Positions 4,463 through 43,228 of a stretch of 64,000 nt of DNA are shown here, one piece after another. Both the position numbers and the translations under genes were made by a program. Location of the stretch: contig NC_135821.1 in assembly GCF_964213995.1 (NCBI RefSeq), forward strand, positions 56,730,001 to 56,794,000. The letters run 5' to 3'. This stretch comes from Mustelus asterias. Taxonomy: Eukaryota. The notes below the pieces were generated by a model. That model was not told where the DNA came from, ran no database searches, and saw nothing but the letters and a program-made list of their open reading frames with translations. Numbering within the stretch: the first letter of the stretch is position 1; each line of letters begins with the position of its first letter.

Positions 4463-4467
4463 ATAGG

Positions 4468-14831: not shown

Positions 14832-15670
14832 AGTGTGCAATTGGATTGTAATAAATAGGAAAATGCTCAAGGGAAGGTTTTTCATCAGTGACCAGGGAGT
14901 TTTGATCCTTGTTCCTCATTAGAAGCTGTGAGAGTAGATGGATAAAGTTAATGATTTTTTTGGCATGTATATGTCAGCTACAAGATGTATTAGGGTAAAG
15001 AGGCTTGTATTTCTCAGAAAGGTAGCAAGTCAAACTCATTTGCTATTACCTAGCCTATTAAGATCTTGATTAATGGTCAAGTTAAAGATATTGCACAGAC
15101 CTCTTATACATTTATAAAGTGCATTTAAAGTAGTGAAATGGTCCAAGCAACTGAACAAGAACATTATCAAGAAGAATACAATTTGGATATTTTGTGACAC
15201 CGGAGGAATCGGGCAAAATGGCCAAATGTTTGATCAAAGAAGGAGGTCTCAAAAGAAGAGAACAGTAAGGGGGTTTAGGGTGGGACAATTGAGTCCTTCA
15301 GGTCAATGAGGCTAAAAGCATGGGTGCCAATGAGCCATTCAATCAGGGATGCTCAGGAGGCTGGAATCAATGGAATGTGGAGCGTAAAGGCTTGTAGGGC
15401 TGGAAAAGACAATGCCGATGGGGACAGATAAAGCAGTGAGGAGTTTTGAAAAGAAGGATGAGGATTGACGCAATGTCAGACAGGTAGTTGGTGAGGCTGG
15501 GTAAAAGAGAATTGGAATGCGCTAAGATAATGCAGAACAGGTATATTGGATGAGCACAAGTTTACGTAGGGTAGAAGATGGGAAGCCAGCCAAAAGAGCA
15601 TTGGAATAATCAAGCCCAGAGGTAATAAAGGCATAGATAAAGTGCAAATAAGCCTGGGTATTTCAAGTAA

Positions 15671-15831
15671 TGATGTGGAGATGCCGGCGTTGGACTGGGG
15701 TAAACACAATAAGGCGTCTAACAACACCAGGTTAAAGTCCAACAGGTTTATTTGGTAGCAAACGCCACGAGTGGTGTTTGCTACCAAATAAACCTGTTGG
15801 ACTTTAACCTGGTGTTGTTAGACTCCTTACT
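15671..15831. mobile_element. Palindromic Penelope-like mini-element (ribozyme core absent)
   Basis: About 60-bp inverted arms plus ~35-nt unpaired tail; 13-bp TSD gtatttcaagtaa (15658-15670, 15832-15844). Confidence 0.8.
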
Positions 15832-16139
15832 GTATTTCAAGTAAGGCAGGTTTCCCTGCGGTGGGGCTGGAGAGTCATTGAAATCTCCATTCACATCGGC
15901 GGAATCAAAAGATCCCATCGTTATGAAGGGCTGAAAAATCCTGGCCCAAGTCTGGATACTAGGTTTTAAAGTAACCCAACCATTTTCAGGTTAATTTAAG
16001 TTATATTAATTGTAATGAATGGCTAAAATGTCATTTTGTGCTAACACTGAGATAAGAAAGATTTTCGTCATTGTTAACCTTTTACAACAAACTAACCTAA
16101 AACAGTATTACAAAGCAGTCACTGATTAGCAACAGATCA

Positions 16140-17610
16140 CAGAATTGTTACACCAAAGGGTGGCCATTTGGCCCATCGAATCTGCACTAGCTCTCCAAAC
16201 GAACATCCTTTCCCTGTGCCCCCGCATATTGTTTCAAGTGAAACGATCATCTAATGCCCTCTTGAATGCTTCAATTGAACCTGCCACCACTGCAATTCCA
16301 GGCAGTGCATTCCAGACTCCAACCACTCGTGTGAAAAAGTTTTCTTTATTTTATTTTTCTTGCTTATTTTGCAAATCATTTTAAATCTGCGCCCTCTCGT
16401 TCTTGATCCTATTATGAGAAAGAGCAGTTTCTCCCTATCTACTCAGGCCAGCCCCCTCCTGATCTTGAACATCTCTTAGCCTTCTTCTCTCCAAGGAGAA
16501 CAGTCCCAATCTCTCCAGTCTATCCTCATAACTAAAGTTTCTCATCTCTGGAAACATTCTGATAAACCCTCTTCTGCACACTCTCCAATGCCTTCACATC
16601 TTTGCTATATTGTGGCGCCCAGAACTGTGCATAATATTCCATCTAAAGTCCAATTAGTGCATTGTATATGTTCAGCATAACCTCCTTGCCCTTGTACTCT
16701 ATGCCCCATTAATAAAGCCCAGAATATTATATGATGTATTAACTGCTCCCTCCGCTGTCCTGCCACCTTCATATATCTATGTACATATCCCTCTGTCCAG
16801 CACCCCCTTTAAGAATTTTACCCCTTATTTTGCATTGTCTCTCCATGTTCTTCCTAACAAAATGCATCACCTCTTACTTCTCCGCATTGAACTTTATCTG
16901 CAACCTTTCTGCCCACACCAACTTGTCTATGTCCTTTTCAAGTTCTCCTCACAGTTTACAATATTTCCAAGTTTTGCACCATCTGCAAACTTTGAAATTG
17001 CCGACTGCACACCAAGATCGAGATCATTGATACTGATCAGGAAAAACAAGAGTCTCAATACCAACACCTGGGGAACACCACTACCAACCAGCCCAAAAAA
17101 TATCCACCGATAATTACACTCTGCTTCCTATTATTCAGCCAATTTTATATCCCTTTTATTCCCATGGTATTAAATGCCTTCTGAAAGTCCATGTACCTCA
17201 TACAGTACAGAAGGCCATTCAGCCCATCGAGTCTGTACCAACCACATCCTACCCAGGCCCTATTCCTGTAATCCCACACATTTACCCTGCTAATCCCCCT
17301 GAAACTAGGGTCAATTTTTGGCATGGCCAATGCACCTAACCCACATATCTTTGGAGTGTGGGAAGAAACTGGAGCACCCGGAGGAAACCCACGCAGACAC
17401 AGGGAGAAAGTGCAAACTCCACACAGACAGTGACCCGAGGCCAGAATTGAACCTGGGTCCCTGGCGCTGTGAGGCAGCAGTGCTAACCATTGTGCCACCG
17501 CCCCAACAGCATTACCTTCATCAGCCCTTTTGGTTACCTCCTCAAATAACAAGTTAGTTAAACACTATCTCCCCTTTAGAAATCCATGTTGGCTCTTCCC
17601 AATCAATCCA
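16140..17610 (-). mobile_element. Decayed CR1 LINE, interrupted by a SINE
   Basis: LFEEVTKRADEGNAV / YMDFQKAF split by the SINE; 3' end at about 16140. Confidence 0.85.
17198..17502 (-). mobile_element. HE1-type V-SINE
   Basis: Same head, core and tail as 14521-14831. Confidence 0.9.
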
Positions 17611-17799
17611 TGATTCCATTAGAACGAAGTACTTCAATTAATCTGGTAATTGAAGGATAATTAATAATCAGTAGTTAATTAGAAGTCACTGTGTTATTTC
17701 TGTGTTCCTCCCTTTTCCTTCTGAGAAAAATTAGTGCTGTAATAGCTGGAAAAGAAATGGAATATGCCTCAGTCTCCCTCAATATCACAAACACACAGT

Positions 17800-18775
17800 G
17801 GGCGCAATCTTAGGAAAAATATTCCAAGGGCCGAACAAGTGACAAAACGGGAAAGTTTCCGACACGTTTTTTCGGCGAGTTTGAAAATGCGATCTTATTC
17901 ACCTATTGCAAAAATAGTGCCAGGATGTGATTCTCGCGAACAGGGGGAGGGGCTCAAGCTTGCCAGGGAAGCCGGCTGCTAAGCTCTGGGGGGACACCAT
18001 TGCATACCGGGGGATCACCAGCCACACCCACTCCACATAGACATCAGGATGCCAATCACAAACATCAGACCGCCCCCTCTTCACCACGGACATCAGACAC
18101 TCCCTCTCCCCTGCGGACATCAGGACCCTTCCCTCCCTCCCATGGACATCGGGACGCTCCCCACCCCTTTGGTAGAGTTCTCTCTCTCCCAACTTGATCA
18201 CCCCTTGGCAGAGTTCCCTCCCCACCCACCGATCGCCCCACTTGGCAGAGTCCCCTCCCTCTCACCTCGATCACCACCCCTGCAGAGCTCCCCATCCTTC
18301 CCACACTGGCAGAGTTCTCCAATTTTCTTCCCGCATCACAGCTCCACCCCACACTGGCTCCAACTTACACTGGCTACTACTAATTGGCCTGGCCCCATGG
18401 GCAGTCCAAGAGTGCCCAACAAGCAGTGCCAGGCTGGCACTGCCCCATGGGCACTGTCTCCAACCACCTGGGGGCTTCAATCCCCTCGGCAAGGCCCCAT
18501 ATCTAGTCCCCATTGGTGGGGGCCATACGTGATCCTCGCTGGGGAGAACCTCAGCCATCAAGGTAGTAAGAGTAAATGAGCCCGGACGATAGTGTCTGGA
18601 ACTCATTAATATTTAAATTGGCTTTGCACCCTTTCTGGGCATGAAGCCAATTTTGCCAGCAAAACAGTGGCAGTATGATCAGGGGGAGGCGTGAACTTGA
18701 TTTTTCGCCTCTCGCCTGATCTTACCACCTCGCCTTGTCGAAAGTCAGGCGGGGCGAGGTGATAAGATCACACCC
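17800..18775. mobile_element. Non-autonomous DNA transposon, PIF/Harbinger-like
   Basis: Imperfect 13-bp TIRs gggcgcaatctta / taagatcacaccc; 3-bp AGT on both flanks; related fragment at about 21640-21740. Confidence 0.55.
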
Positions 18776-19398
18776 AGTGTCTTCGATTGTTGAGTCTGTC
18801 TTCATGAATGGGACTCCTGTAAAGACACTAAAGTAAGGAGAATGGCTTAAAGGAAGGTACTGTCCTAACTTTAAGACAAAGTGTGTAAATAGCTAGAACC
18901 AATGGAGTTAACTCGGATTACATTATTGACAAATTATAGACCAATTAGCCATTTCCAACAACCTGTCTAAGGTGGGCTTGCAACATCTTTTGAGTATGAG
19001 AAAAGGGGTTGTGGGAACTCTCTTTGTGTGCATCATGTGCGGAAGAACCAGTTTAGATCTTCGGCGTAGTTTGAGCATCCTATCAGCGTGAAGGTCGTTT
19101 CCAATAAATTTCAGGGTGGTTGAGTCATTAGCACTGGGACTGGTCCAGCAACGGATTCTCTGCCAGTCGAAATCCCAGGAAGGTGTAGTGCTTCTCGGAG
19201 GCAGCGACTGTTTCTCTGTCAGCGTGAGTAATTCAAGTTGTTGTCCACTTCTCTTGGGTTGATCACCCATTTGAAAGCATGGAGTTGGTAGAGTTTCATT
19301 GACAGGAATACTTACCTAAATTCTGCCTCTGTTAGTTAGTTGATAAGTTTCTAAAACTTGTTTATAATCAATAAACTTTGATACTATATACTAGTGTG

Positions 19399-19745
19399 TC
19401 ATAGAATCATAGAATCATAGAAACCCTACAGTGCAGAAGGAGGCCATTCGGCCCATCGAGTCTGCACCGACCACAATCCCACCCAGGCCCTACCCCCACA
19501 TATTTACCCGCTAATCCCACTAACCTACGCATCTCAGGACTCTAAGGGGCAATTTTTAACCTGGCCAATCAACCTAACCCGCACATCTTTGGACTGTGGG
19601 AGGAAACCGGAGCACCCGGAGGAAACCCACGCAGACACGAGGAGAATGTGCAAACTCCACACAGACAGTGACCTGAGCCGGGAATCGAACCCCGGACCCT
19701 GGAGCTGTGAAGCAGCAGTGCTAACCACTGTGCTACCATGCCGCC
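19399..19745 (-). mobile_element. HE1-type V-SINE (young, CpG-rich)
   Basis: Complete head to (gattctat)n tail. Confidence 0.92.
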
Positions 19746-19807
19746 CACTCCACACAGACAGTGACCCGAGCCAGAGTATTCACCTGATGATTATCTCTGA
19801 GTCGAAT

Positions 19808-20128
19808 TCACAGAATCCCTACAGTGCAGGAGGCCATTTGGCCCATCGAGTCTGCACTGACCACAATCCCACCCAGGCCCCATCCCCGTGACACCACTTA
19901 TTTATCTGCTAATCCCCCTGACACTAAGGGACAATTTAGCATGGCCAATCAACTTAACCCGCACATCTTTGGAGTGTGGGAGGAAACCTGAGCACCAGGA
20001 GGGTACCCACGCAGACAGGAGGAGAATGTACAAACCCCACACAGATAGTGACCCGAGGCCGGAATTGAACCCAGGACCCTGGCGCTGAGAGGCAGCAGTG
20101 CTAACCACTGTGCCACCCGTGCTGCCCG
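19808..20128 (-). mobile_element. HE1-type V-SINE
   Basis: Second tandem copy. Confidence 0.9.
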
Positions 20129-21280
20129 GTTTAAAAACAGTTTAAAAGGGTAATTTGGATTCATCAGGCAGTGCACATCCAAACTGGATCAATCTAAAAT
20201 ATCAAAACATCCTTTTTTTAAACTTAAAACAATGCACTTGTAACAAAGGGTTTCAGCAGAAGATGAGCAGAGAGATGGTTGGAGTTGAGGGATGTTACAG
20301 AGATAGAAGAGGGCTATTTGGTGATCATGCAAATATGTAGTTAGAAATTCAACTCAGGATCAAACAGGAGGTTGCAAACAACCTTATGCAGTGTTATGTT
20401 CCAGTGTATCATGCAATTTCAGGCAATACTGAAGAAAAGTAGATTGTTAAACTAGCCGCTGCCAGTTGTGTGACCTCTGGTAGTCTCAGCTCCAAACTAT
20501 CCTGAGAGTCAAGCAATACTGGACAGTCACAGACATCCAGGGAGTTCACACATCCCTTTATTTAAGGCTGGAACATCAACAAAAAGACTATAGCCTTCCG
20601 GCTGACTCATCTTTCTGGTTCGCCGTGGGCAAAAGACACACCAAACTCAATGTGTGTGAGACAAATATGATTGGATCCCTACTGATCTCCCACTGCATTA
20701 AGATGCTTCATCATTCAAACCCAGACTGGGTAAATTTCTAAGTGTCCAATAACAACAGAAGATGTTTATAAACCTGACCACCCATCTCAATTAAAAAAGG
20801 ACTTTGGACTTGTGACAGGACACATGGGTGAGACAGCCATGTTTGTTGCCTTCTTTTAAAATGCAAGAATCAGCCATGCAGAGACACAAAGACAACCGGG
20901 AAACCATCGAATCAGCTACAGTCAACTAAGTAGCCAAGGTAATAAACAGCAATACCTCAGAAGAGAACAACTTCCCCAACCTGTCCCCGAGTTCACCTGA
21001 GGACCAACCTCCTGGAAATTCAACTACACAAAGCCTCGCAGCTTACTGAGAAACCTCTGCTTACAAAACCTTAACTTCAAACAAAGAATCAACTCATCTA
21101 AGAAACTACAAGCCTGCTAAGAATGAAGCTGAAGTTTTAATTGTATTATTTTCTTTTCACTTCATCAGTATCTGATTTACATACAAGTGATCGTGAGTGT
21201 GAGAGGCAAGTGATTGAGGTGTCACATTTGCATCCCTGGGGAAAGTATGAGATCATATAATCTTTATTTAAATACTCACA

Positions 21281-21631
21281 AAAAGAACAAAGAACAGTAC
21301 AGCACAGAAAGAGGCCCTTTGGCCCTCCACGCCTGCGCTGATCATGATGCCTGCCTAAACTAAAATATGCACTTACGGAGTCCGCATCCTTCCATTCCCA
21401 TCCCATTCACGTATTCGTCTAGTTGCCCCTTAAATGCCGCTATCCTATCTGCTCCCACCACCTCCCCGGGCAGCGCGTTCCAGACATTCTGTGTAAAAAA
21501 AAACTTGCCTCGCACATCTCATCTAAACTTTTCCCCACGCACCTTAAACCTATGTCCCCTAGTACTTGACTTTTCTACCCTAGGAAAGAGCATCTGACTA
21601 TCCACTCTGTCCATGCCACTCATAATCTTGT
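21281..21631 (-). mobile_element. CR1 3' fragment
   Basis: KIMSGMDRVDSQ-like C-terminus and ttctttgttct tail on the minus strand. Confidence 0.8.
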
Positions 21632-22229
21632 CAAAGTTATGGTGCCCAGTGGGCAGTGCCAGGGTGTCCAGCAGGCAGTGCCAGGCCAGCACTGCCCCAT
21701 GAGCACGGCCCGGCCCCTGCCTCCAACCACCCGGGGGCTCTAATCAAAATCTTGCTGCTGGATGTACTTAAATTGGGGCCATCACTGAGGGAACGGGGTT
21801 ACACACGCCTCACATACAAAACACATTGATCATGGACAGTAAGAAAACTCATAAAATTCTGTCCATGATATCAGCTTAAGATAGTTGTTACAATCCCTGT
21901 GAGGACCAATAACATAAAAGAATCTAACTTCCCAAATGAGCCAAAAGGAAAAAAACTAATGACAAGATTTCACTTATTAAAACTATTACTGTCCCAATAA
22001 AACCAAAATCAACATAAATTAAACATGAATCAACAGGCAAGTTGTATTCAATAGAAACCATAAATTATGCTTTAAATATCTGACACAAAGATTTCACAAA
22101 TTTCTTACATAGACATAAGTTTTAATGGGGCATTTCAGATTGAATATAAATTGGCTTACTTTAGTTGTGCACACCTAACTTGTTTCCAAATCAACCCCCT
22201 AAAATGCTCAAGCTCACAGAGGACTCAAC

Positions 22230-22600
22230 CATAAGGCAAGACTCTGGAACAGCAAACAATTAATTCTCTAGGAACATGGATTCAAAACCCACTACGGCAG
22301 CTTCTGGAATTTAAATTCAAATTAAGTTTTTTAAATCTGGAATTATAAGCTAGCCTCAGTAATGTTGACCATGAAACTATCATTGACTGTTGGAAAACCC
22401 CATCTGGTTCAGTAATGTCCTTTAGGAAAGGAAATCTGCCATTCCTGCCTGGTTTGGCCTACATGTGATTCCAGACCCACAACAATGCAACTGACTCTTA
22501 ACTGCACCATTTAGCAAGTTCAAAGGCAATTAGGGATGAACAACAAATATTGGCACTACTCGTGACGCTCATATCCCATGAAAGTATAAAAAGAAATCAA
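22230..22600 (+). mobile_element. SINE of a second family (same as 42740-43228 and 61345-61605)
   Basis: Shared core ccatctggttca..aatgtcctttag..aaggaaatctgcc and shared tail. Confidence 0.75.
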
Positions 22601-23294
22601 AGTTTATTTTGAAAGGGGAAAAGAACAGCTTTTATTGGGGGCCAGGTAGAAGTGTAAATCAACCTCAGGTTCCCTCAATGATTTCCCCAAAATCCCGCCT
22701 CAGGGAGCACTCAGTCCATCTTACGACTATAGTCCTTTTCTCTTCTGACTGATGGTAAAGATGGTTCTTGAAACCTCCATTTTTAAACCCTTGCAATAGC
22801 ATCACCCCATTTCGAATCTAGACTGCTGCTCCTAGCCAGTTAGTTAATTGTTGTTACTGGGTCAATTTCATTGGTTTTAACTATTTGCACCCATTCCACA
22901 TTGAGTAGAATAAGACTTATCAGAATTTATACCAACCATGTTCGTTACTATGTACTTTCTCCAGATGTCTAAGGACAAAATGGAGGTTCATGCTCATTGG
23001 TATCCGATTGCACCCTTTCTCACTGCAGACAATATTGGTTTGTAGCAAGTTAATGCTTTAAGCTTCAAACAGAATATTACCCACCCTTAAGTATCAGATT
23101 AATTATTTATTCATCAATTATATAATTGAGGCTCACTACCGATTCAATCATCTCTTTCTGGCAGGTAATTTTTGATTAGTATGTGTGTGGTTCTGTAGTT
23201 TGTATTTAGAGATTACAAAATGGTTTATTTGGCCCAATGGTAGTATAAAATGGCATCTTGACCTTGTTAAGATTAATACAGTATATATAAGGCA

Positions 23295-23456
23295 AGGATA
23301 GATAAATTTTTGAACAGTAAAGGAATGAGTTATGGTGAGCAGGTGGGTAAGTGGAGCTGAGTCCACGAAAAGATCAGCCATGATCTTATTGAATGGCGGA
23401 GCACACTCGAGGAGCCAGATGGCCTACTCCTGCTCCTAGTTCTTATGTTCTTATGA
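23295..23456 (+). mobile_element. CR1 3' end fragment
   Basis: agatcagccatgatcttattgaatggcgg...ttcttatgttcttatg, as at 7482-7565. Confidence 0.88.
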
Positions 23457-24815: not shown

Positions 24816-24907
24816 GAGTCTCAAAATCCAACGAGCAGCCACCCGAGGAACAGATTTTGAGTTAGATTTTGCTAGTTCCTTGAACAGTCCTTTCTCCTCT
24901 ATATATG

Positions 24908-26383: not shown

Positions 26384-26812
26384 TCTATATATGCTTCTTT
26401 GTAAAGCACTCTTTTACATGTCAGTTAAACAGGGATTTGTAACACACATTTTCAGTCCTGCACTCTCTGCAACTCACTGGCCTATTCCACATTCCTAGCA
26501 TTTTATCAGCCATCTCCCCTCGAACCACTGACATGACCCTCAGGAACACTCTCACCCATTACCAGCATTCCCTTAGTTAGTGCTTTTTAAATCATCTTTA
26601 CCCTTGCTTCTGCTTGGTGGTTACTCTTTATCCACCACTCAAGTTTCTTGAAACGTCTTTGAGGATTACAGAAATGAACACTTAGTGATATGGACTCAAG
26701 TTAACCAATGACTGCTGCAGCTTTAAAGTACAGACTATGTTTACAGCATCAACCTATGTTGTTTCTAATATCCTTTGGACTGTTGACAATACACAAAAGT
26801 GATCTAAGGAAA

Positions 26813-27025
26813 TAGTAAGAAGTCTCAACACCAGGTTAAAGTCCAACAGGTTTGTTTGGTATCATGAGCTTTCGGAGTGCTGCTCCTTCATTAGTTGAGT
26901 GATGACTCACCTGATGGAGCAGCACTCCAAAAGCTTGTTATGCCAAACAAACCTGTTGGACTTTAACCTGTTGGTGTGACTTCTTACTGTGCCCACCCCA
27001 GTCCAATGCCAGCGTCCCCATATCA
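26813..27025. mobile_element. Palindromic Penelope-like mini-element, decayed hammerhead cores
   Basis: Inverted arms; near-TSD gatc(t/c)aaggaaa at 26801-26812 and 27026-27037. Confidence 0.8.
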
Positions 27026-27039
27026 GATCCAAGGAAAGG

Positions 27040-30461: not shown

Positions 30462-30475
30462 ATTAACTCCAAGAA

Positions 30476-30785
30476 CAGTAAGAAGTCTCACAACACCAGG
30501 TTAAAGTCCAACAGGTTTATTTGGTAGCACAAGCCACAAGCTTTCGGAGCGCTGCCCCTTCATCAGGCGAGTGGGAGTTCTGTTCACAAACAGGACATAT
30601 AAAGACACAAACTCAAATGTCTTTATACGCCCTGTTTGTGAACAGAACTCCCACTCACCTGATGAAGGGGCAGCGCTCCGAAGGCTTGTGGCACGTGCTA
30701 CCAAATAAACCTGTTGGACTTTAACCTGGCGTTGTGAGACTTCTTACTGTGCTTACCCCAGTCCAACGCCAGCATCTCCACATCA
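30476..30785. mobile_element. Palindromic Penelope-like mini-element with hammerhead motif in each arm
   Basis: 132-bp arms 30476-30607 / 30618-30749, 36-nt tail; TSD taactccaagaa at 30464-30475 and 30786-30797. Confidence 0.88.
30535..30569 (-). ncRNA. Minimal type I hammerhead ribozyme motif
   Basis: cgc CUGAUGA a GGGGC agc GCUCC GAAA GCU U gug: intact core, stem II, palindromic AGCU in place of stem III. Confidence 0.75.
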
Positions 30786-30819
30786 TAACTCCAAGAATGC
30801 AATGATGCATTTTACTTAC

Positions 30820-32379: not shown

Positions 32380-33605
32380 GCAACACTTAAGATTCTATCG
32401 CAAGTACTTAGAAAACCAATGGGGAATTTATTTTTAATTTGATTCCAAGCAGTTAAAGTACCTTTGATAAGGTACCACAGGGTTAGGCTTGTAAGAAAGA
32501 TCAGGGCATGTGGAACCATGAGACAATTAAATGGATGAATAGAAAATTGGCTTTAAAAGAAGTAGAAAGCAGACAGTAGGAGAAAAGGGTATTACCCAGA
32601 TTGCAGGACAGTGAGAGAAAAAAAGCAATGTTCCATAGAGCAAGGGCTAGACTACTGTTATTCATAACTGACAATGAGTTATACTTGGGAACAATAACTA
32701 TCAAAATTTCAGACGATGCCAAGTTGGAGGGTATAACCAACATGGAGGAAGAATGGATACATTAGACAGGCAATTAAATGGCAAAATAACTTTTGCAGAT
32801 AATTGCAAGATGATGTACTTTGGTAAGAAAAATAGAAAATAAGAAACTGAACAGGGTAGAAAGACAAAGGGGTCTAGAGATACAGGTAAGCAATTCATTA
32901 GCATTATCTCAGGTCAAAGTAATTAAAAATTCAAACATTAAGATTTATTTCAACGGGTGCATCAAGTAATGAAGTAATGTTAAGCTTGTATAGTACCCTG
33001 GTCAGGTTACATTTGAGAGCACAATGAACAGTCCTAGTCCCTATCCTATAATGAAGGGGCAACGCTCCGAAAGCTCGTGCTACCAAATAAACCTGTTGGA
33101 CTTTAACCTGGTGTTGTGAGTCTTCTTACTGTGCCTATAAAAAGAACACAGTAGTAATAAAGTATAAAAATATTTACAAGGATAGTAAAGATTACAGTCA
33201 TTAGGAAACATTGAACAGGATGAGGCTTTTTTCTTTACCCACAACCCCACCGGCACCTGAAGACTGAAATGTGATCTGATGAGGTTTTTTAAAAATTATA
33301 AATGGATTGTACAGGGTGGATGGATAAAATGCTTCCAAATCCATATTTACTGCCATAAATACAGGACTTACTAAATTCAATAGGACAAGGAGTAATCTCT
33401 GACTCAGCAGCTACAATGGGGAATTTCCTATCATTTAAATGATTAAGGAAAAGAGATTTTGAAAATGTACTAGACAAGCACATGACAGAAAGAGAATAGA
33501 AGAATCTGCTGAAAGGCAGACACTAGGGGAAAGACTCATGAAGCATAAACACCAGCACAGAAAATGGGTTTAATCACCATTTCTGAGCTTTATACTCTAT
33601 GTAAT
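32380..33605 (+). mobile_element. Highly decayed CR1 LINE
   Basis: tttgataaggtaccac (FDKVP), tcaaaatttcagacgatgccaagttgg (ADD region) and C-terminal remnants. Confidence 0.7.
33052..33133 (+). mobile_element. Single-arm Penelope-like fragment truncated within the hammerhead core
   Basis: tgaaggggcaacgctccgaaagctcgtg...cttactgtg; TSD cctataa. Confidence 0.8.
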
Positions 33606-33623
33606 TAGTTATATTTCTATTTG

Positions 33624-33942: not shown

Positions 33943-35112
33943 AAAAGTCCTGACAATTTGTACAGTATGATGGTCCTGCAGGCTGTGGAGGAATGGTTCA
34001 TTTGCCACTACAGTCCCCAAATGGCAGCATAAAGATGCATCATGACAAGTTTCCTTCATAAATAAGTCAATGCAGTATATTAAAAGAACCAACATACTGT
34101 ACTGCCTTGTCTTCCAGTGGCTAAGTGAAGACCTAGCTTCCATCATTCTCCTTAACTCCCCATTTTGACCATCCGGACACAGTCACAGATCTTCCTGACC
34201 CAAATAATACACAAAAAGAGGGCAATGAAATTGGATTATGTAGACCAGTTAATACATCTTATGGTGGGCTGGCAACTGTAGGATTGCCATGGAGCAGAGC
34301 CACATGGGTCACCACTTGGCCACAGGACCTGCGTGGTAAACTAATCTTAGTTTTTCCACTTAATACTTGGGTGAATATACAGTGCCCCAGTTTCTTTTGT
34401 AACATGGTGTTTTTGAAAGCCAATTGTTCCTTTAACCATACTGAACTACATTGGCCAAACTGCCCGCAAACACTGCACACACGCAGATACAAAGATACCA
34501 CCTCATATCTTCAAGAAGTGCAGTCCATTTCAAGGCTTCTATAAAACAGAAATAAATCAAGTCACACAAACCAATTTTACTTTGTATATATATGGGAAGT
34601 GTTTGAATGACATGTTGATAAGCTACAGCAGAGTTAAATTATTACTGTAATTACAATTTCTGATATTACAAACAGCAAGTATACATCAAAAATACTAATT
34701 AGCTATAAAATCACTGGGATATTTTGAGTCACAAAAAGTTCTCTTTTCCTTATAGTGCAAGTCAGCATAGAATAGTTTCTACTGTTACTTTGTAGGAATG
34801 GCTACATGCTGCACAGTTGTGCCCCGTTGGAAATATTACTCAAAGTAAACTGAATTCTTCAATAATTTAGATATTAAACCAATGTATCAATGGTTGAGCT
34901 GGAAACAGAAAAACTATCAATTTATTCTACCTCATTGTAGGAACACCAGCCTGCAATAGAGTGGGTAAACTGACAGTAGCCACTATAATAAAGATCAGAG
35001 AGCTCTTTGTAAAAGTCAGTGAGTGCTGAAAACGTTAGATAGAAAAGACCTTCAACATTTAGACCTGCACTTGTAACACATTTCATTACAGTGTACAGAG
35101 CTTATCACTCAC

Positions 35113-35267
35113 CTTTTTAGTCAATTCTTTCACTGCATCACTGTTAGCTTTCATTTCAAAACGTCTCTCATTTTTGAGAGGCATCAGCCTGGGAGGCAAG
35201 TGCATGTTGCCCATTCCCAATAATTTATCAGCATTTGCCTTGGCAATTTCAAGCAACTTCTTTTTCT
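35113..35267 (-). CDS. RSRP1: RSRP1 exon (EKKKLLEIAKANADKLLG...KELTKK)
   Basis: LLEIAKANA signature of RSRP1/SON; ctcag / gtgagt boundaries; 155 nt, phase 1-0. Confidence 0.95.
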
Positions 35268-35893
35268 CTGAGGAAAAAAAAACAAGAACGACTTACTCAA
35301 TTTTAGCGTGCAACTCTTAAGCTTTTAAAGTGCCGATGGGCAATATTAGTACCACTTCACAAGAGATTAACTTCAAAAATAACAAAACAAGTTGAGGCAT
35401 TTGCCAATGAATGGTGGTGTCACATTAATAGACTAATATTTACTGCACTGAAGATATTTAATCCTGTTTATTTTTAGAAAATACAAATGTCATTTTCCTC
35501 ATCACTCCCATAAGTGAGCAGTCAGAGACCCTGCAACTTTAAACATAATACTGGATGATGGATAATACCCAGCTCTTGAACAGAAAGACTTAATTGTGGT
35601 CTTCAGCTCACTGGATATATCACGTGCCCAAGTGCATTTCTTCTCAACTTTGAAAGGCAAAGGAGGCTTTATGGTGTGGCAATGTAAAATACTGTACAAA
35701 ATTATGGACTGGGCTTCTTGCTCAAGGGAAACTAAACTTTTACCCTCAAAGATACCACCATAAAAGAACATTATAACTCCACAGACAAAAATCACATTTT
35801 GACAATACTTTAAAAGACTCACTTTGTATAGAGACATTGTACCAGATTATGTCTCAAATTTTTAAGAGAACACACTGTAAAACTATCTTTTAC

Positions 35894-36781
35894 CTGTCTG
35901 TGTTAAGTGGATTGATCTGTCCCTCGATCTGCTTCGATTTCTTCTGTGAGATGGTGGTGGGGTTCTGCGTGATGGTGGTGGGGTTCTGCGTGCAAAGCCA
36001 TAGTAACTTCGCCGAGGTCTGGATGGAGATCTAGACAATGATCTTGAGCGGGATCTCCTGTATCTCAAGCTGGATCTGGACCTTTGGTATGATCTAGAAG
36101 AGGGTATGTAGCACCTAGATCTGGACCTGTATCTATGCGTCGAATTAGACATCCGATGTCTGGATTGTTGGTAACAAGACCTTGACCAACTTCTAGATCG
36201 GGACCTCGAATAGGTTTGCCTTGATCTTCTGTAGCTCCTCTTCAGTGATGCATATCTGCCTCTTGAAGCTAAAGAGATTTCATCTGAACTTGAACCATAT
36301 CGCTCTGAAGAGACTGAACCTGATCGGGATCTGCCTGCAGAGGACACGGAACGTGAACGAGAGCTTCCTGAAGATGATATCGATCGGGAGAGACCTGAAG
36401 ACGATGTTGAACTTGACCGCGAGCTGCCTGAAGAACATGCTGAACTTGACCGCGAGCTGCCTGAAGAACATGCTGAACTTGATCGGGAGCTATCTGAAGA
36501 TGATATCGAACCTGACCGGGAACTGCCTGAAGATGACTCTGAACTCAATCGCGAGATTTTAGATTTCTTGATGCTAACTGTTCTTGAACGTGATTTTCTC
36601 TCCTCCTTTCCAGTCTTCTGACAAGGAGAACAAAGTCTCAGTTTGTCCACAACAGCAGCTTCATTTTCAGTCTCCTGCTCCTGTGCACATCCAGCTGTTC
36701 CCAACTCCATTTCAATGTCTTGCTCCATTTCTGAATCTGATTTCAGAACATTATCGTATCCTTGTTGCAAATTTGTTTTAT
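35894..36781 (-). CDS. RSRP1: RSRP1 large Ser/Arg-rich exon
   Basis: Open RS-rich frame; tttcag acceptor, gtaaaa donor; 888 nt, phase 1-1. Confidence 0.9.
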
Positions 36782-37834
36782 CTGAAAGATAAATAATCAC
36801 ATTCACATGGCCGTGAACACAAACCTCCATTGAAAACATGAATCTAATCTTGTGTATGGTGCAATAACTGAATTTCAACTGTTATTGCTATTTTCCATTT
36901 TTTTTACACAAAGCTGCAGTCAGTGGTTTAATACTAACCAAACATCATATTAGAGAACCTTAAAACACTTGAGGTTATCCGTCCATCATGATTGTGCTGG
37001 CTCCTCGAAGGAGTTATTTGATTAGTTCCATTTCATGACTCTTTCCCCATAGCTTTGCACACTTTTCATTTTCAAGTACTGCCACAAGAAACAGTTACTT
37101 GACTTGCACTACAAATTTTCAGCACCCTCAACTTTCTCTGTGCCAAGCAGAACAATTGCAGCTTCTCCTGTCTCTCCATTTAACTCACCCCTCATCTATC
37201 AGCAATGAGAGAATTTTAGATCAACTAAGACCCATTTTCATGGATTTGTCTTGCCTGTTGTCGATCTTAACAGGGCCAGTAAATACACTTCAACAGGTGC
37301 AACATGTTTTCATAGTATGTAATGCTACTACAGTACAACATTGCAAAGATGCACTTACTATTCATAGGTGTAAATACTGATGACATGAAACATCAGACGT
37401 TTTAACACTGACCAGCATTAGTAAGTCAGCACTATTTCTGCTATGCATTCACCAAGGAACATTAGCCGCACAATTATTTTGGAAGTGTATTACTTTTCGA
37501 GCACTCAATCAGAAAAATAGCACAAAAGTTCAAGTCACAAACATGTTACCTATTAGAAGCATTAAAAGAATGGTAGATTCTTGAATATCTCACTGCAGCC
37601 CCAAAGAGACACCAGAATGTCTGTGACACTTTTAGGAATACTTAAAATATTTATCCACAACACAAACTCTTACCACAACAAGACCATGCTAATCATTACA
37701 GATCCTCTGATGTGTAAAATGTGCCGCAGTCCAAACACCAAGTACAGATTCTCTTGCGGGCCTCAGGGATTGGCGGAACCACTGATTTTCAAATATAACT
37801 GAAAACAGAAAAATCTAAAAAGAATTAAACTTAC

Positions 37835-37887
37835 CATTGCTAGATTTCTCTCCCATCATTTCGCAGGAGAAACCAACTGAATTTAGC
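37835..37887 (-). CDS. RSRP1: RSRP1 exon 2 (…LNSVGFSCEMMGEKSSN)
   Basis: aacag acceptor, gtaagt donor; phase fits both neighbours; in-frame ATG at 37859. Confidence 0.75.
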
Positions 37888-38859
37888 CTGTTAACACAAA
37901 AAAAATACAAATTTGCAAGTGAGGTTTGGGCAGTTCAGTTTCAAACTATAAGTAATTGCATTGCATTTATAGCAATTAGGAACAAAAAGGTTTTAACACC
38001 AACAGCCTCCATAAACTTCCAGTTCAATTAAAATGAAAAAGTTCCAACCAAACTGAACCAAGTCCTGCTCACACATTACTATTGTTCTCATTGACCTACT
38101 CGCTCTGTGGAAACCTCAAAACTAAAAATGATTTTTAAATTTAAAACCCATTATGGCCTCACCCCATTCCTTCTCTAACCTATTCTACCCCTAAAACACA
38201 CCCTTCAACACATTTTCCTCTGGTTCTGTACACATGGTGCACCCTTCCCTCCTTTTGCCTCGCACATTCAACCATCTAAGCTCTGCATTCCCAAAATCCC
38301 TCAAACGCCTCCTCTCTATCTGACAGTTTGTGATTACCCTGCATATCTTCCGTTAATTTTTGATTACAGCTATGTTAAATGAGTTATATAAAGGGAAGGT
38401 GTTATTATATTGCAGCTTTCATACAATATTTGACAAACATAAAAAAGGAATCAAAGTCAAATAGTGTGCATTTTATTCAGCTACATCAGTGTCACCAGTG
38501 AGTCAATGGCTTTATAGAACTCTACTGCTTGAGAATTGGCCAGAGGGTGGGACTGAGAATGAGGCTGCTGATCCGTGATGAGCCAGCAGCTCAATATAAA
38601 CATCCTTATCCTGTAGAAATAATCTCTCCGTGAAAATTATTACTGTTGTTGACAATGTAATTTGAAGAATATGTGCAACAGGTTAAACTCTCTGCATTTC
38701 ATTTTATGTTATCAACTTGTTTGCATTATGACAATCTAAAAAATGAAACTCCAATAGGCACGTACGCCTTGACATTGACCCCACTCTATCCTGACAATCC
38801 AACCCAATGACTCAGACCCATCACCTGACAACCCAACCCATTGACTCAGACCTTAGCAC

Positions 38860-39625
38860 ACGTCAACCCACCCACTGACTTTAGCCCCTTCGCTCCCAAC
38901 ATTCAAACCCACTGACTTTAACCCCTTCACGCCAATCAAATCCACTGACTTTAACCCCTTCGCTCCCATCAAACCCACTGACTGTAATCCCTTCGCACCC
39001 AATCAAACCCACTGACTGTAATACCTTCACACCCAACAATTAAACCCACTGACTTTAACCCCTTCGCGCCCAGTTAAACCCACTGGTTTTAACCCCTTCG
39101 TGCCCAATCAAACCCACTGACTTTAACCCCTTCACGCCCAATCAAACCCACTGACTTTAACCCTTTCGCGCCAATCAAACCCATTGACTTTAATCCCTTC
39201 GCTCCCAACAATCAATCAATCAAACCCACTGACTTTAACCCCCATCTCCCAACAATCAGCACTGTGGCACAGTGGTGAGCACTGCTGCCTCACAGCACCA
39301 GGGACCCTGGTTCAATTCCAGCTTTGGGTGACTGCGTGGCTTTCCTCCAGGTGCTCCACTTTCCTCGCACTGTCCAAAGATGTGTGGGTTAGGTTGATTG
39401 GCTGTGATAAATTGCTCTTTAGTATCAAGGGGACTAGCAGAGTAAACACTTGGGGTTGTGGAGATAGGACCTGGGTGGGATTGTTGTCAGTGCAGACTCA
39501 ATGGGCTGCGAATGGCCTCCTTCTGCACAGTAGGAATTCTATGATTCTATGAGTCAAACCCAATGACTTTAACGCCTTCACCCCCAACAATCAAACTTAG
39601 ACTATAATCCCTTTGCTCCCAACAT
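38860..39625. repeat. Degenerate ~33-bp minisatellite (aatcaaacccactgactttaaccccttcgcgccc), split by a SINE
   Basis: About 11 units before and 2 after the SINE. Confidence 0.9.
39258..39551 (+). mobile_element. HE1-type V-SINE (internal deletion)
   Basis: Head and attctatgattctatg tail. Confidence 0.85.
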
Positions 39626-39664
39626 CTTGTCTCAGACTCACTTTCTCCCCTAATGCCCCAGCAC

Positions 39665-39889
39665 CTTGTTGTAACCCTGATCCCAGCCCCTTGTTGTAAC
39701 CCTGATCCCAGCCCCTTGTTGTAACCCTGATCCCAGCCCCTTGTTGTAACCCTGATCCCAGCCCCTTGTTGTAACCCTGATCCCAGCCCCTTGTTGTAAC
39801 CCTGATCCCAGCCCCTTGTTGTAACCCTGATCCCAGCCCCTTGTTGTAACCCTGATCCCAGCCCCTTCTTGTAACCCTGATCCCAGCCC
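39665..39889. repeat. Near-perfect 25-bp tandem repeat x9 (cttgttgtaaccctgatcccagccc)
   Basis: Directly visible; one substitution in the last unit. Confidence 0.97.
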
Positions 39890-40042
39890 AATCTCCATCG
39901 CCTTCCTGTCAAAAGTGCGTCATCACCCAAGGGCAAGACTTTAAACTATTTGATAAAAATCAGATCGCCTGCCCCCCCGAAATGCTTTTCAAATTTCAAA
40001 TAATTTTAGTAACCCGAGTCCTTTCCGTCCTACAATACTCAC

Positions 40043-40116
40043 CGATTACACTGGCTGGCTTGGTTGGGTAGCGAGTTTGAGTGGCCGCCACTCTGATCAC
40101 CGCCAGTTATCACCAT
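40043..40116 (-). CDS. RSRP1: RSRP1 exon 1, candidate coding part (MVITGGDQ...QCN)
   Basis: aagATGg context, gtgagt donor; 74 nt splices in frame to exon 2. Confidence 0.55.
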
Positions 40117-40124
40117 CTTCTGAG

Positions 40125-40400
40125 TGAAAGTGACGCAATCGATTCGCTCCTTTTATAACCTGACCCCGGAAAGAGCCCGCCTCTACCTCTCTATCATTGG
40201 CCGCCCGCTTCCCCAAATCCCTATTCTTATTGGATTACCTGGATGCCACCCGTAACGTTGGCCAATAGGACACGGCGGACCTCGGCTGCACCGCTTCCTA
40301 TTGGTCAAGCAAGCTGTCAGTCACCGCCTGGGCTCGGCGGCCGCCGCCAACTCGACGCCCCATTGGTGCAGCCGTTTGTCAATCAACCAACAACTGCCGG
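40125..40400 (-). promoter_or_regulatory. RSRP1 CpG-rich promoter
   Basis: TATAAAA 40157-40151; CCAAT/ATTGG at 40196, 40229, 40262, 40300, 40362; CCGGAA and TGACGCA motifs. Confidence 0.85.
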
Positions 40401-40685
40401 CAACCTGCGATTGAAGGCTTTGTCAAGTGAAGCTTCTGGAACCTTATCTCAGTTTTACACTCTGAAACCTGAGGAGTTTCTTCATTGTTTTTTTTCAGCA
40501 CTTGCTATTGTCTCCCTGCCTCTCGAAACACGACGATGAGAGGTTACAGGGTTACACCAGGTTATAGTCCAACAGGTTTATTTGAAATCACAAGCTTTCG
40601 GAGGGCTGCTCCTTCCAGTGGCGGATTTACTACCACCCGGACCCCTAGGTTGAGTTTTAGTGAGGCCCCCTGACCTTGTCCCCTG

Positions 40686-40784
40686 CAGTAAGAAGTCTAA
40701 CAACACCAGGTTAAAGTCCAACAGGTTCATTTGGTAGCAAAAGCCACTAGCTTTCGGAGCGCTGTCCCTTCTTCAGGTGGGTGG
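40686..40784 (-). mobile_element. Penelope-like arm with intact hammerhead core, nested in the hAT element
   Basis: Minus 40779-40745: cac CUGAAGA a gggac agc gcucc GAAA GCU A gug. Confidence 0.82.
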
Positions 40785-40937
40785 GCCCCCTGCCCCACCC
40801 TTCGTTGAATAGAATAAAGTGACGTTAAGTGACGTTAGATAACTTATATCGTTGTATTATGTATAATGTGCTACATGTATAATATCATAAATTTATATGA
40901 ATCAATTACAGCCCTTTTCATTTATTTTTCATTTTCT

Positions 40938-41138
40938 TTACATTTGTACTTTAAAAAGCTTCCGTGTTTTTTGCTTTACAAAAGTGTCGATAACAGCATG
41001 TAAATCAACAGATCGAAGCATGTCTGATTCAATGTGCATGAGTGCCAGATGACTAAGTTTCTCATAGCTCATTGTTGAGCGCAAATAGATTTTGATCCTC
41101 TTTAGTGCCGAAAATGAACGCTCACCTGAACAGTTGGT
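40938..41138 (-). pseudogene. hAT transposase C-terminal dimerisation-domain fragment
   Basis: Manual translation TNCSGERSFSALKRIKIYLRSTMSYEKLSHLALMHIESDMLRSVDLHAVIDTFVKQKTRKLFKVQM*. Confidence 0.9.
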
Positions 41139-41587
41139 GATTTTTTTTGCTCTCGGGGGCCCCCCTCCCTTCCGGGCCCCTAGGCTTAAGTCTATTCAGC
41201 CTAATGGTTAATCCGCCACTGGCTCCTTCATGAAGTGGAGCGAGGTCTGCAGGCACAGAATATATAGGTGGAGTCCGCTTATATATATTCAGACAAAGGA
41301 GTAGCGCTGGGAAAGCTTGTGTCGTGTGACCTCTCATCAAAACACAATGATCATCCATCTCCACTAACCCCCCCCCCCCACAAAAAAAAACCCAACCTCA
41401 TCCCTTCTGCTGGATCATTAAAGTTTATTTATTCGTGTCTCAAGTAGGCTTACACTATCACTGCAATGAAGTTTCTGTGAAAATCCCCCAGTCACCACAC
41501 TCTGGTGCCTCTTTGAGTACACTGAGGGAGAATTTAGCATAGCCACTGCACCTACCATTTACCTTATTGGGTTCCTACATGTCACTG

Positions 41588-41870
41588 AACATAGAAATAC
41601 AGAAAATAGAAGCAGGAGTAGGCCTTTTGGCCCTTCGAGCCTGCTCCACCATTCATTTTGATCATGGATGATCATCAAATTCAATATCTTGACCCTGCCT
41701 CACCACCCACTGCCCCCCCCCCCCGCCTTAATCCCTTTAGCCCTAAGATCTATATCTAATTTCTCCTTGAAATCACACTATGTTTTGGCCTCAACTGTTT
41801 CCTATGGTAATGAATTCCACAAATTCACCACTTACTGGGTGAAGAAATTTCTCCTCACCTTAGTCCTAAA
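41588..41870 (-). mobile_element. CR1 3' fragment
   Basis: gaggagaaatttcttcacccag...gtggtgaatttgtggaatt on minus; ttctatgttc tail. Confidence 0.8.
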
Positions 41871-42392
41871 CAATTATACTACTCCCTTAATGTGGCGAGA
41901 AAAAATCCTTATTCATGCAATTACTAAAGATTGCTTTGCAGTGGGCAATATAAAATTAGCTGATAAAATGATTGTAATAAATAACAGAGGAGTGAGCATT
42001 GCTCCCACTCTGCCCTATTGGACTCCAGAAACAGTCATTAAGACAATGTCATAAACCATAAAGTGATATGCTGTCCCCAGAATCCATGTTTAAAGTTGAG
42101 CCAGAACTCAAACTCATGTCCCAGGCACATTCCACTCTCTGCCACTGGAACCAAGTACCTACAATTCAGTCTCCATTAAATATTAGAGGCGTGTGGTGTT
42201 TATTTTTTGTAAACAATATAAAGAGTGGGGCCTTTTTCTTATGGCAATGAGCCTGCAGAAAATTGAAATGACCCTCCTGAGTGTGCTTATTGTTATGTTG
42301 CCAATCAGTAAACAGAAAGTGTTGGAAATGCTAAGTAGGTCTGGCAGGATCAGTGGAGAGAGCTAACTGAATCAAATGTGAATCTTCTTCTA

Positions 42393-42668
42393 TTCATAGA
42401 TTCCCTATAGCGTGGAAGGAGGCCATTTGGTCCATTGAGTTTGCACTGACTCTCTGACAGAGGATCTATTCCCTGGGACATTATGGGGTGATTTAGCATG
42501 GCCAACCCACCTAACCCGCATATCTTTGGACTGTGGGAGGAAACTGGAAACCCACGCCGACAGGGTAAAATGTGCAAACTCCACAGAGATAGTCACCCGA
42601 GGCTGAAATTGAACCTGGGGTCCCTGGCACTGTGAGGCAGCAGTGCTAACTGCCGTGCCACCGTGTCG
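42393..42668 (-). mobile_element. HE1-type V-SINE
   Basis: Head and tail recognisable. Confidence 0.88.
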
Positions 42669-42739
42669 CTCACCTGAATCAGGATCCACAATATTTTGGT
42701 CATTTTGTATTGTAATGTGTCCCGTATAGGCATATATAG

Positions 42740-43228
42740 GGAGGCGATGGCCTTGTGATATTATCGCCAGACTATTAATCCAGAAACTCAGCTAATGGTC
42801 TGGGGTCCCGGGTTCGAATCCCGCCACGGCAGATGGTGGAATTTGACTTCAATAAAAAATATCTGGAATTAAAAGTCTAATGATGACCATGAAATCATTG
42901 TCGATTGTCGGGAAAAAAACCCATCTGGTTCACTAATGTCCTTTAGAGAAGGAAATCTGCCATCCTTACCTGGTCTGGCCTACATGTGACTCCAAAGCCA
43001 CAGACTCTCAACTGCCCTCGGGCAACTAGAGACGGGCAAGTAAATGCTGATGTGGAGATGCCGGCGTTGGACTGGGGTAAACACAGTAAGAAGTCTAACA
43101 ACACCAGGTTAAAGTCCAACAGGTTACCAAATAAACCTGTTGGACTTTAACCTGGTGTTGTTAGACTTCTTACCAAGTAAATGCTGGCCAGCCAGCGATG
43201 CCCATATCCCACAAGTGAATGAAAAAAA
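42740..43228 (+). mobile_element. tRNA-headed SINE (second family) containing a Penelope-like insert
   Basis: B box GGTTCGAATCC; tail aaatgctggccagccagcgatgcccatatccc resembles the LINE end at 53260-53320. Confidence 0.8.
43048..43173. mobile_element. Palindromic Penelope-like mini-element (shortest copy)
   Basis: Inverted arms + tail; TSD caagtaaatgc at 43037-43047 and 43174-43184. Confidence 0.82.

Follow-up and report, generated by a model that had tools for sequence, protein, structure and literature searches.

Short inverted insertions in a shark genome are the truncated 3' ends of a Penelope-like retrotransposon, probably made by twin priming

Penelope-like elements (PLEs) that carry an endonuclease (EN+) are assigned to the Neptune clade by a CX2-5CxxC linker between the reverse transcriptase (RT) and endonuclease (EN) domains (PMC8557442). 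In Anolis, the PLE protein cleaves both target strands and extends each of them (Frangieh et al., 2024; PMC11167929); it is predicted to be dimeric, and RT starts from two internal positions in the RNA, one at either boundary of the tail, with both start sites used on both strands. For Poseidon_Ac (PAc) the same work predicts a head-to-tail N-terminal helical dimer and finds the minimal hammerhead dispensable for insertion (PMC11167929). An inverted copy with a tail and a target site duplication (TSD), and minimal hammerheads, are already published PLE features, and the origin of the inverted repeats and one-sided tail, together with the role of the hammerhead, are posed as open questions in PLE papers.

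The window analysed here, a 64-kb stretch of the Mustelus asterias genome, holds eight copies of one family, all of them present where the original prediction had placed them and each derived from the last 27-176 nt of the parent element described below. Two fixed element ends recur, one at -1, at the next AUG, in the arm bearing the tail and one near -35 in the tail-less arm. The head-to-head stub at 15658..15844 has a 13-bp TSD (15658-15670 / 15832-15844), a minus-strand tail-bearing arm (15672-15771, element -100..-1) and a plus-strand tail-less arm (15771-15831, from element -97), both too short to contain the hammerhead. An older stub at 26801..27037, with a 12-bp TSD bearing one mismatch (26801-26812 / 27026-27037), comprises a tail-less arm on the minus strand (26814-26898) and a tail arm on the plus strand (26907-27024) that both end ~4 nt 5' of the CUGAUGA core, and its hammerheads are decayed. 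The longest stub, 30464..30797 (12-bp TSD, 30464-30475 / 30786-30797), extends up to the predicted TATA region, its tail-less arm being on the minus strand (30475-30616, element -176..-35) and its tail arm on the plus strand (30618-30784, element -167..-1). It contains a minimal hammerhead on the minus strand (30534..30571; CGC-CUGAUGA-A-GGGGC(AGC)GCUCC-GAAA-GCU-U-GUG), and the plus-strand partner near 30656 has a broken core, GAAGGCU. A young stub at 43037..43186, 99-100% identical to reference copies, has a 13-bp TSD (43037-43049 / 43174-43186), a minus-strand tail arm (43049-43125, element -77..-1), a plus-strand tail-less arm (43125-43173, element -86..-38) and no hammerhead. The remaining copies are a single tail-less arm on the plus strand (33051..33138), which begins within the hammerhead core, without CUG; a single tail-less arm on the minus strand (40686..40785, element -135..-36), with a hammerhead in which one stem II pair is mismatched and H17 is A; a one-arm minus-strand fragment (40554..40615, element -114..-53), at which no tail, partner or TSD was seen; and a 27-nt tail-only fragment on the minus strand (63625..63651). 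The inverted-arm architecture ascribed to every copy therefore holds for four of the eight (15672, 26814, 30475 and 43049) and is lacking in the other four, while the ~35-nt tail is indeed confined to one side. Tail-less arms do stop near the proposed common endpoint CTTACTG (-29 to -38), although the fragment at 40554 is cut at -53. Five copies were said to have TSDs of 7-13 bp; the four two-armed stubs have TSDs of 12-13 bp, and the 7-bp repeats flanking the single arms (33045/33134 and 40680/40787) are weaker.

The stubs almost certainly derive from the 3' end of an autonomous EN+ PLE, inserted as 5'-truncated copies. Their arms continue unbroken into RT and GIY-YIG coding sequence, and their lengths grade continuously up to full elements as a truncation series. 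The parent unit of 3,021 bp consists of an 892-aa RT-EN ORF and a 342-nt UTR containing the hammerhead; a full ORF of 892/893 aa was recovered in 11 of 20 regions chosen for long frames, and many intact ORFs are present in the genome. Genome-wide there are 60,142 exact matches to the parent tail and ~74,000 hammerhead-bearing arms. Tandem parent units without a seam occur, as do two internally deleted tandem copies of UTR and ORF start (C1:3486259 and C1:100062194), for which an origin by splicing was rejected as no GT..AG was seen in the reference. The parent ORF matches Pfam RVT_1 (E 1e-9) and has the RT motif YIDD, and a family copy matches Pfam GIY-YIG at E 2e-4, just under the curated cut-off. 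A CCHH motif with two cysteines between GIY and YIG (VVYLIRCKKGC...YIGET...NEH...GEHF) is conserved throughout the alignment, and a CX4CX2C linker (CHSNLCKTC at 754) lies between RT and EN, making the parent a putative Neptune-type element by the linker criterion. The nearest protein relatives are from sharks. No solved PLE structure was found by sequence search, and the best 10 Foldseek matches of the modelled protein (mean pLDDT 87.6) are all TERTs, at a low TM of ~0.3. Partial tandems of the pseudo-LTR (pLTR), an inverted 5'-truncated copy, a 30-40-bp tail and a variable TSD are all present in the family. The PLE reading of the original prediction is thus borne out by the RT and GIY-YIG parent that a search from the arms recovered, by shark proteins as closest relatives and by a conserved, covarying hammerhead, and the absence of an ORF is true of the stubs but not of the family. 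A separate non-coding mini-retroelement or retrozyme family, as also proposed, is not supported by these copies, as they are the short end of a coding element's truncation series and not tandem units.

Comparison across the family indicates that the minimal type I hammerhead is real as a selected motif, because its core is fixed, N7 and H17 vary, and helix I shows a compensatory change. The core conservation was found in an alignment of 124 arms (5 further arms failed to parse), with CTGANGA in 117, GAAAGCT in 105 and in 7 more via CpG decay, and an additional A after A9 in 123. Position H17 is U81/A37/C5/G1 and N7 is A56/C47/U19/G2. In 12 recurrent haplotypes plus one window arm, 112/112 helix I/II cells are paired; helix II swaps G-U/A-U/G-C, and helix I changes from CAC/GUG to CAU/AUG, a CG to UA double change that may be one inherited event. 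The predicted rules for H17, N7 and stem II therefore hold in the family, G occurring once at H17, but the window has too few arms to support them. Similarly, the hammerhead claimed for the longer copies stands as a family-wide core, but in the window only one arm, on the minus strand near 30569, satisfies a strict minimal descriptor, for which the background is 0.025 hits per shuffle, and CTGANGA alone barely exceeds chance (53 vs 38.5). An Rfam scan of the window gave no hammerhead model match, only hairpin-driven miRNA matches below their cut-offs, and monomer folding formed helix II only, with no signal over shuffles (z ~0). We consider it likely that the hammerhead is catalytically active under some condition.

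In a wider sample, a repeat of at least 7 bp flanks 78 of 95 pairs, compared with 29 of 2000 shuffled flank pairs. TSD length has a mode of 12-13 bp and is mostly 9-16, so the earlier range of 7-13 bp runs short. Target preference is symmetric, CTG..TSD..CAG, each half-site independently preferring C-5 T-4 G-3 (n=75, p 1e-4 to 3e-14; 7 of the 75 sites lie in two host repeats that were hit more than once), and no microsatellite insertion bias was seen. All 95 sampled pairs have one tail, the sample being mostly chosen by presence of a tail; genome-wide, 8,393 pairs in one size class have 6,286 tail matches, and only 36 pairs are two-tailed against ~1,177 expected if tails were independent. This strict one-tail rule is left unexplained by the Anolis work, because both starts served both strands there. 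Arm lengths within a pair correlate (rho 0.66), yet the tail-less arm is longer by >20 nt in 24/95 pairs and the tail arm in 16/95. Arms differ by 0.9% within an insertion versus 3.0% between insertions. A few TSD-bounded insertions have arms of two lineages, namely L288 (8 shared-variant differences, 13-bp TSD), which was chosen for being discordant, L083 (5) and C1:4425179 (6); these could stem from gene conversion. In the oldest subfamily, mapped ends may be off by as much as 10 nt. Both element ends also recur as loose ends in contigs of other organisms.

Junctions accumulate at the predicted transcription start and not at the cleavage site. Over the 19 nt that precede the core, which take 56/167 ends, the junction hazard reaches 3.0 per 100 nt, compared with 0.42 around the cleavage site and 0.16-1.05 farther upstream; 40 of 56 reference arms have a TATA-like motif 34-38 nt ahead of the core. 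A single end of 167 falls within 1 nt of the cleavage site, contrary to the proposal that stubs derive from self-cleaved RNA; a small peak of truncation there (5 ends at 0 among 289) was gone once true junction ends were used. There are 1,461 near-symmetric centres immediately 5' of the core and 161 about 20 nt farther up, with another zone of 1,153 ~50 nt downstream, these counts coming from three anchors that cover different subfamilies. About half of the junctions have a gap or inserted bases instead of overlap. The self-complementary word GGGAATTCCC occurs in 12 of 50 listed centres, near the predicted start pile-up, and since the pile-up coincides with such short words, microhomology alone may drive part of it. 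Loop-less palindrome centres, counted by eye, were found at 15 of 50 listed loci; strict ones number only 2 in the 95-pair sample, well below the genome lists, which were selected by centre. A cap-copied extra G was also considered, a G preceding 23/56 start-zone ends and 28/111 elsewhere, which is suggestive but confounded by the opposite arm and was set aside.

In LINE-1 twin priming, both target nicks prime RT and produce an inversion within one TSD, the two segments being non-overlapping parts of one RNA. In the shark copies the two arms instead have nearly the same 3' starting point and overlap, so that a palindrome results, but each head-to-head copy was probably made in a similar manner. 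A predicted protein dimer would nick the two target strands 12-13 bp apart, and element RNA would be copied from each nick, one RT starting at -1 and the other at -35, after which the two cDNA 3' ends would be joined via short microhomology or end-joining and filled in by repair. For the commonest short stubs, RT would be initiated within the mRNA's 5' UTR copy and would run off the 5' terminus of that mRNA, which lies just upstream of the hammerhead, ~29 nt after a TATA box; that this run-off point is the transcription start seems to us somewhat better than an even chance. The hammerhead likely acts in the parent RNA cycle and not in making stubs; cleavage between tandem units would be assisted by dimer formation or by protein, and may yield circles. 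Modelled as a homodimer, the N-terminal 330 aa score 0.40 against 0.14 for the best control (pLDDT 61, low), with runs agreeing in at least 31% of contacts. The mark for a dimer is reached by 21/30 solved pairs and 0/23 single chains in a mostly microbial calibration, and by 17/29 eukaryotic and 7/16 animal pairs and 0/30 single chains; the model predicts a dimer for this region. We lean slightly towards the broader view that the family is a genome-scale record of PLE integration by two-ended RT, in which a symmetric dimer makes cuts 12-13 bp apart in a palindromic CTG..CAG target, starts at the AUG and 35 nt upstream are obligatory, the ends are joined, and the hammerhead serves only to make a unit-length, possibly circular, template that regenerates tandems. 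If true, the two-ended reading would explain the inverted-pLTR-plus-tail signature without self-priming.

Near-identical arms and correlated arm lengths were counted against twin priming, and both are also predicted if, with the same parent, the first cDNA or an antisense template folds back and primes its own copying to give the second arm. Such a process has been proposed for rotifer Penelope elements (PMC3846280), and many centres do lie on short self-complementary words, but it seems an unlikely origin here. A tail-less arm that is often the longer cannot be copied from tail-primed cDNA, the tail cannot be copied from tail-less cDNA, and intramolecular hairpin priming cannot form loop-less centres; two-lineage arms and the symmetric target also speak against it. 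The fold-back origin originally suggested thus does not serve as the whole mechanism, and a hybrid can be envisaged in which priming takes place at both nicks before one of the cDNAs folds back.

Much less probable is a non-autonomous, retrozyme-like family that is mobilised through a palindromic or circular RNA of its own, formed after self-cleavage by the hammerhead. The hammerhead is conserved, the two deleted tandem copies resemble mini-units, and animal retrozymes derive from PLE pLTRs (bioRxiv 10.64898/2026.07.22.740005); against this, the stubs are dispersed and single or inverted instead of direct tandem repeats, their centres vary from copy to copy, their lengths run on to full elements, almost no ends fall at the cleavage site, and two of the four two-armed window copies lack any hammerhead. 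Derivation from DNA transposons (MITE or foldback elements) or from long-read chimeras has a negligible chance of being correct and is effectively refuted by the RT-coding parent, whose 3' end forms the arms, and by TSDs that vary from 9 to 16 bp. Only the palindromic shape recommends it; the ends are asymmetric, in place of the symmetric terminal repeats and fixed TSD of a DNA transposon, the arms are diverged and TSD-flanked, and the two element ends occur as loose ends in contigs of other organisms as well. Simple fold-back and retrozyme circles both fit worse than twin priming, which is our best reading.

Beyond published PLE features, the family has TSDs mostly of 10-14 bp, a symmetric target, a tail on one arm, either arm longer, loop-less centres and junctions at the predicted transcription start. 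Searches of the openly accessible literature found no description of the shark family, and none of a symmetric target or of twin priming in PLEs. The family scatters thousands of short perfect palindromes (those 8,393 pairs in one size class), and likewise its hammerhead-bearing arms, through a vertebrate genome. With its tens of thousands of insertions, its young intact ORFs, a defined target preference and two defined start sites, it allows twin priming to be tested directly against self-priming.

The closest described relatives, EN+ PLEs of the Neptune clade (Craig et al., 2021; PMC8557442), have in common with the shark element a single ORF, a telomerase-like RT with C-terminal GIY-YIG, the CX2-5CxxC linker, the CCHH motif, a hammerhead in the pLTR, partial-tandem pLTRs, an inverted 5'-truncated copy and a 30-40-bp tail at one end; the shark family differs in that no microsatellite bias was seen, its target preference being instead a symmetric CTG..CAG and its TSDs clear, at 12-13 bp. 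PAc matches its proposed two internal RT starts bounding the tail, proposed priming of both strands and predicted N-terminal dimer, but belongs to the Penelope/Poseidon clade and lacks the linker that the shark element has (PMC11167929). In PAc, RT starts 111-118 nt inside the ORF, the hammerhead overlaps the start codon and the target preference is ATT, whereas in the shark element the tail ends at the AUG, the hammerhead lies ~100-130 nt upstream and the preference is symmetric (PMC11167929). Passages describing metazoan PLE minimal hammerheads (Cervera and De la Pena, 2014; PMC4209133) match the shark motif in the missing helix III loop, the palindromic 15.2/16.2 (AGCU), the extra nucleotide between A9 and G10.1, the G10.1-C11.1 pair, a short helix I, many variant families and opposite-strand pairs 100-700 bp apart; the shark helices differ from these in length, helix I having only 3-4 bp and helix II 5-6 bp, and the text passages and one supplement of that study gave no shark example. 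Non-LTR retrozymes are likewise non-coding PLE pLTR pieces with a type I hammerhead, but form direct tandem repeats with one hammerhead per unit, unlike the single or inverted, dispersed shark stubs (bioRxiv 10.64898/2026.07.22.740005). Penelope insertions of Adineta vaga (Arkhipova et al., 2013; PMC3846280) share an inverted pLTR, a 31-bp tail, 8-10-bp TSDs, TATA plus Inr in the pLTR and palindromic junctions; they are low in copy number and antisense self-priming was proposed for them, whereas the tens of thousands of shark copies favour twin priming.

All eight sites named in the original prediction are present in the window and belong to one family, whose identity as 5'-truncated 3' ends (stubs) of an autonomous Neptune-type Penelope-like element (PLE) is well supported. 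With element positions counted back from the final tail base (-1), mapping to the element places two-armed copies at 15672, 26814, 30475 and 43049; the predicted two-armed architecture does not extend to the other four sites, which are single arms without the ~35-nt tail (33051, 40554 and 40686) or a tail fragment (63625). Target-site duplications (TSDs) are clear in four cases, three exact at 12-13 bp and one of 12 bp with a single mismatch, and two 7-bp flanking repeats are weak. Rfam hammerhead models found no match in the window; one window arm passes a strict minimal hammerhead descriptor, for which shuffles give 0.025 matches each. Other features of the window include an uninterrupted 175-aa frame at 56341-56868 (-) that combines a U1 zinc finger, matched by Pfam zf-U1 at E 7e-23, with a proline-rich tail and may be a U1-C-like gene or a processed copy. 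A LINE at 3851-7473 (+), presumably of CR1/L2 type, has a piece of an ORF1 resembling GDSL esterases, together with an open APE-RT frame of 1,011 aa, and just upstream of it lies a 20-bp tandem array of 87 copies (1432-3192). A Ser/Arg-rich 332-aa frame with 33-bp repeats at 35883-36881 (-) had no match in a Pfam search, is possibly a host exon, and holds eight of the window's CTGAAGA matches. An RNase H fragment of an LTR retrotransposon lies at 11393-11923 (-), and a ~330-bp dispersed SINE-like repeat of 70-90% identity, which we take to be HE1-type, occupies eleven sites (14518, 17201, 19411, 19808, 30176, 33624, 39259, 42394, 59473, 61791 and 62800).

The parent with RT and GIY-YIG domains that had been anticipated was recovered from a single arm: matching loci in the same genome continue directly into that coding sequence. 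An N-terminal piece used as query gave many frames of 912 codons among the matches listed, and a complete 892/893-aa ORF occurs in 11 of 20 fetched regions, these being chosen for long frames. The unit in one such region (L072) is 3,021 bp, comprising the ORF and a 342-nt UTR whose last base adjoins the following AUG, which puts the end of the tail at the start codon. YIDD, a CX4CX2C linker and a CCHH endonuclease motif all occur in the protein, and the best structural matches to its model are telomerase RTs. Its nearest named proteins are from Mustelus (94%), Heptranchias (84-86%) and Scyliorhinus (81-85%), with turtles next (42-44%), which makes a shark the probable host. Genome-wide there are 60,142 exact 26-nt tails (control 0) and 74,449 arms spanning the hammerhead, while six blindly chosen blocks (600 kb) hold 17 clusters, two blocks having none; we estimate roughly 100,000 insertions. 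The same family occurs in contigs of four other organisms (X1, X2, X3 and X5), where the loose ends listed coincide with the end of the tail in three runs and lie near -35 in two, and the variation listed falls at N7, helix/loop II and H17. A young lineage (L079, L080, L243, L244, L172, L183 and L190) is longer by ~60 bases where the ORF stops (near -347..-363), and its ORF ends ..SHYFT. Regions L067 and L068 (G000:C4:69471730-69481040) contain ~3.3 head-to-tail units with a period of 2,991 bp and a frameshift common to the units, which fits copying of more than unit length off one template. Tandem copies at L269:5825-6363 and G000:C1:100062357-100062721, which leave the ORF within 105-227 nt of its start and resume at ~-188, appear to be internally deleted, retrozyme-like mini-units.

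To describe insertion anatomy, 864 kb of blocks and 120 contig C1 loci selected for a tail or a hammerhead pattern were sampled, yielding 201 mapped clusters and 95 simple head-to-head pairs, which omit complex and edge-cut clusters. TSDs of at least 7 bp flank 78 of the 95 pairs, most often at 12-13 bp, against 29 among 2000 controls, and every pair (95/95) has exactly one tailed arm. Within one size class genome-wide (8,393 pairs, 6,286 tail matches), 36 pairs are two-tailed against ~1,177 expected under arm independence. Single arms have TSDs in 16 of 32 tail-less and 8 of 32 tailed cases. The flanks of 75 sites with TSDs of at least 9 bp read CTG(G/T)N upstream and N(A/C)CAG downstream, each half-site being independently significant. 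In the same list four insertions share one site of a host repeat and three lie in another, the window copy at 43037 being one of the three.

A twin-priming mechanism for the stubs is moderately supported. A dimer would nick both target strands and each nick would prime its own cDNA, one starting at -1 and the other at ~-35, the two ends then being joined; two cDNAs so joined give TSD, antisense arm, sense arm, TSD and a single tail. Nicking of both strands would fit the symmetry of the target, and also the homodimer modelled for the N-terminal part (score 0.40 against 0.14 for the best control; pLDDT 61; contact agreement of at least 31% in the model runs). The score mark is reached by 21 of 30 solved pairs and none of 23 single chains, and by 7 of 16 in animals. 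Alternatively, the second arm might be self-primed from the first cDNA by pure fold-back. Arms diverge by 0.9% within an insertion and by 3.0% from one insertion to another, as measured in the 27 young pairs, out of 108, that overlapped sufficiently, and in three insertions 5-8 shared-variant differences separate arms under a single TSD. Fold-back alone, however, has no way to gain a tail from a tail-less cDNA, nor could it yield a longer tail-less arm, and where arm lengths differ by more than 20 nt the tail-less arm is the longer in 24 of the 95 pairs and the tailed arm in 16; loop-less centres (15 of 50 among those listed) are also beyond it. A hybrid, in which both nicks are primed and one cDNA then folds back, is possible.

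Self-cleaved RNA had been proposed as the stub source, but the cleavage site coincides with just one true junction end out of 167. Ends instead concentrate in the 19 nt before the hammerhead core (56/167; hazard 3.0 per 100 nt versus 0.42 at the cleavage zone). Short stubs likely arise when RT starts in a 5' UTR copy and runs off the 5' end of the RNA. In 40 of 56 reference arms the core is preceded, at a distance of 34-38 nt, by a TATA-like motif; in L072 this motif is followed 29 nt later by CCCACT, which we take to be Inr-like. A competing cause of the pile-up is self-complementary words in the same zone, where near-symmetric centres number 1,461, with 161 ~20 nt upstream and 1,153 ~50 nt downstream, anchors spanning different subfamilies. 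The partial units that lie upstream measure 131-1,307 nt, and many exceed what RNA started in the pseudo-LTR could supply; these units would fit a circle or read-through.

Anchors outside the motif gathered 129 hammerhead arms, of which 124 were parsed, the other five being broken by deletions or junctions; arms from one insertion are non-independent in all these counts. CTGANGA is present in 117 and GAAAGCT in 105, with another 7 attributable to the latter once CpG decay is allowed for. The base counts are A56/C47/U19/G2 at N7 and U81/A37/C5/G1 at H17. The strands of helix I read CAC/GUG in 76 arms and CAU/AUG in 34, a double change that may be a single event, and pairing is kept in 112/112 pair cells across twelve recurrent haplotypes and the window arm. 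Conservation downstream equals that of the motif, in part an effect of anchor choice. Judged from this sequence pattern, the hammerhead is under selection in source elements, and its leaving no breakpoints would fit a role in cutting tandem units apart and perhaps in circularising them. The pattern agrees with the minimal hammerheads set out in PMC4209133, and the published hammerheads of this kind are weak or protein-dependent.

Our literature search found no description of the shark family, which may stand in Repbase or Dfam, and no report that PLEs have a symmetric target or integrate through twin priming. In the accessible text, whale shark papers name Penelope merely as a class, and a preprint that covers one cartilaginous fish (bioRxiv 2026.07.22.740005) may bear on novelty. 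The combination of inverted copy, tail, TSD and hammerhead was already published for PLEs, as the available portion of PMC8557442 indicates. PLE palindromes have been explained by antisense self-priming (PMC3846280, in part), and their origin is called an open question in excerpts of the PLE literature. Within the accessible text on Poseidon_Ac of Anolis (PMC11167929) we found no statement tying two starts or both-strand extension to inverted copies. The shark stub mechanism is testable, and for Poseidon_Ac the same text demonstrates two RT start sites and extension of both strands.
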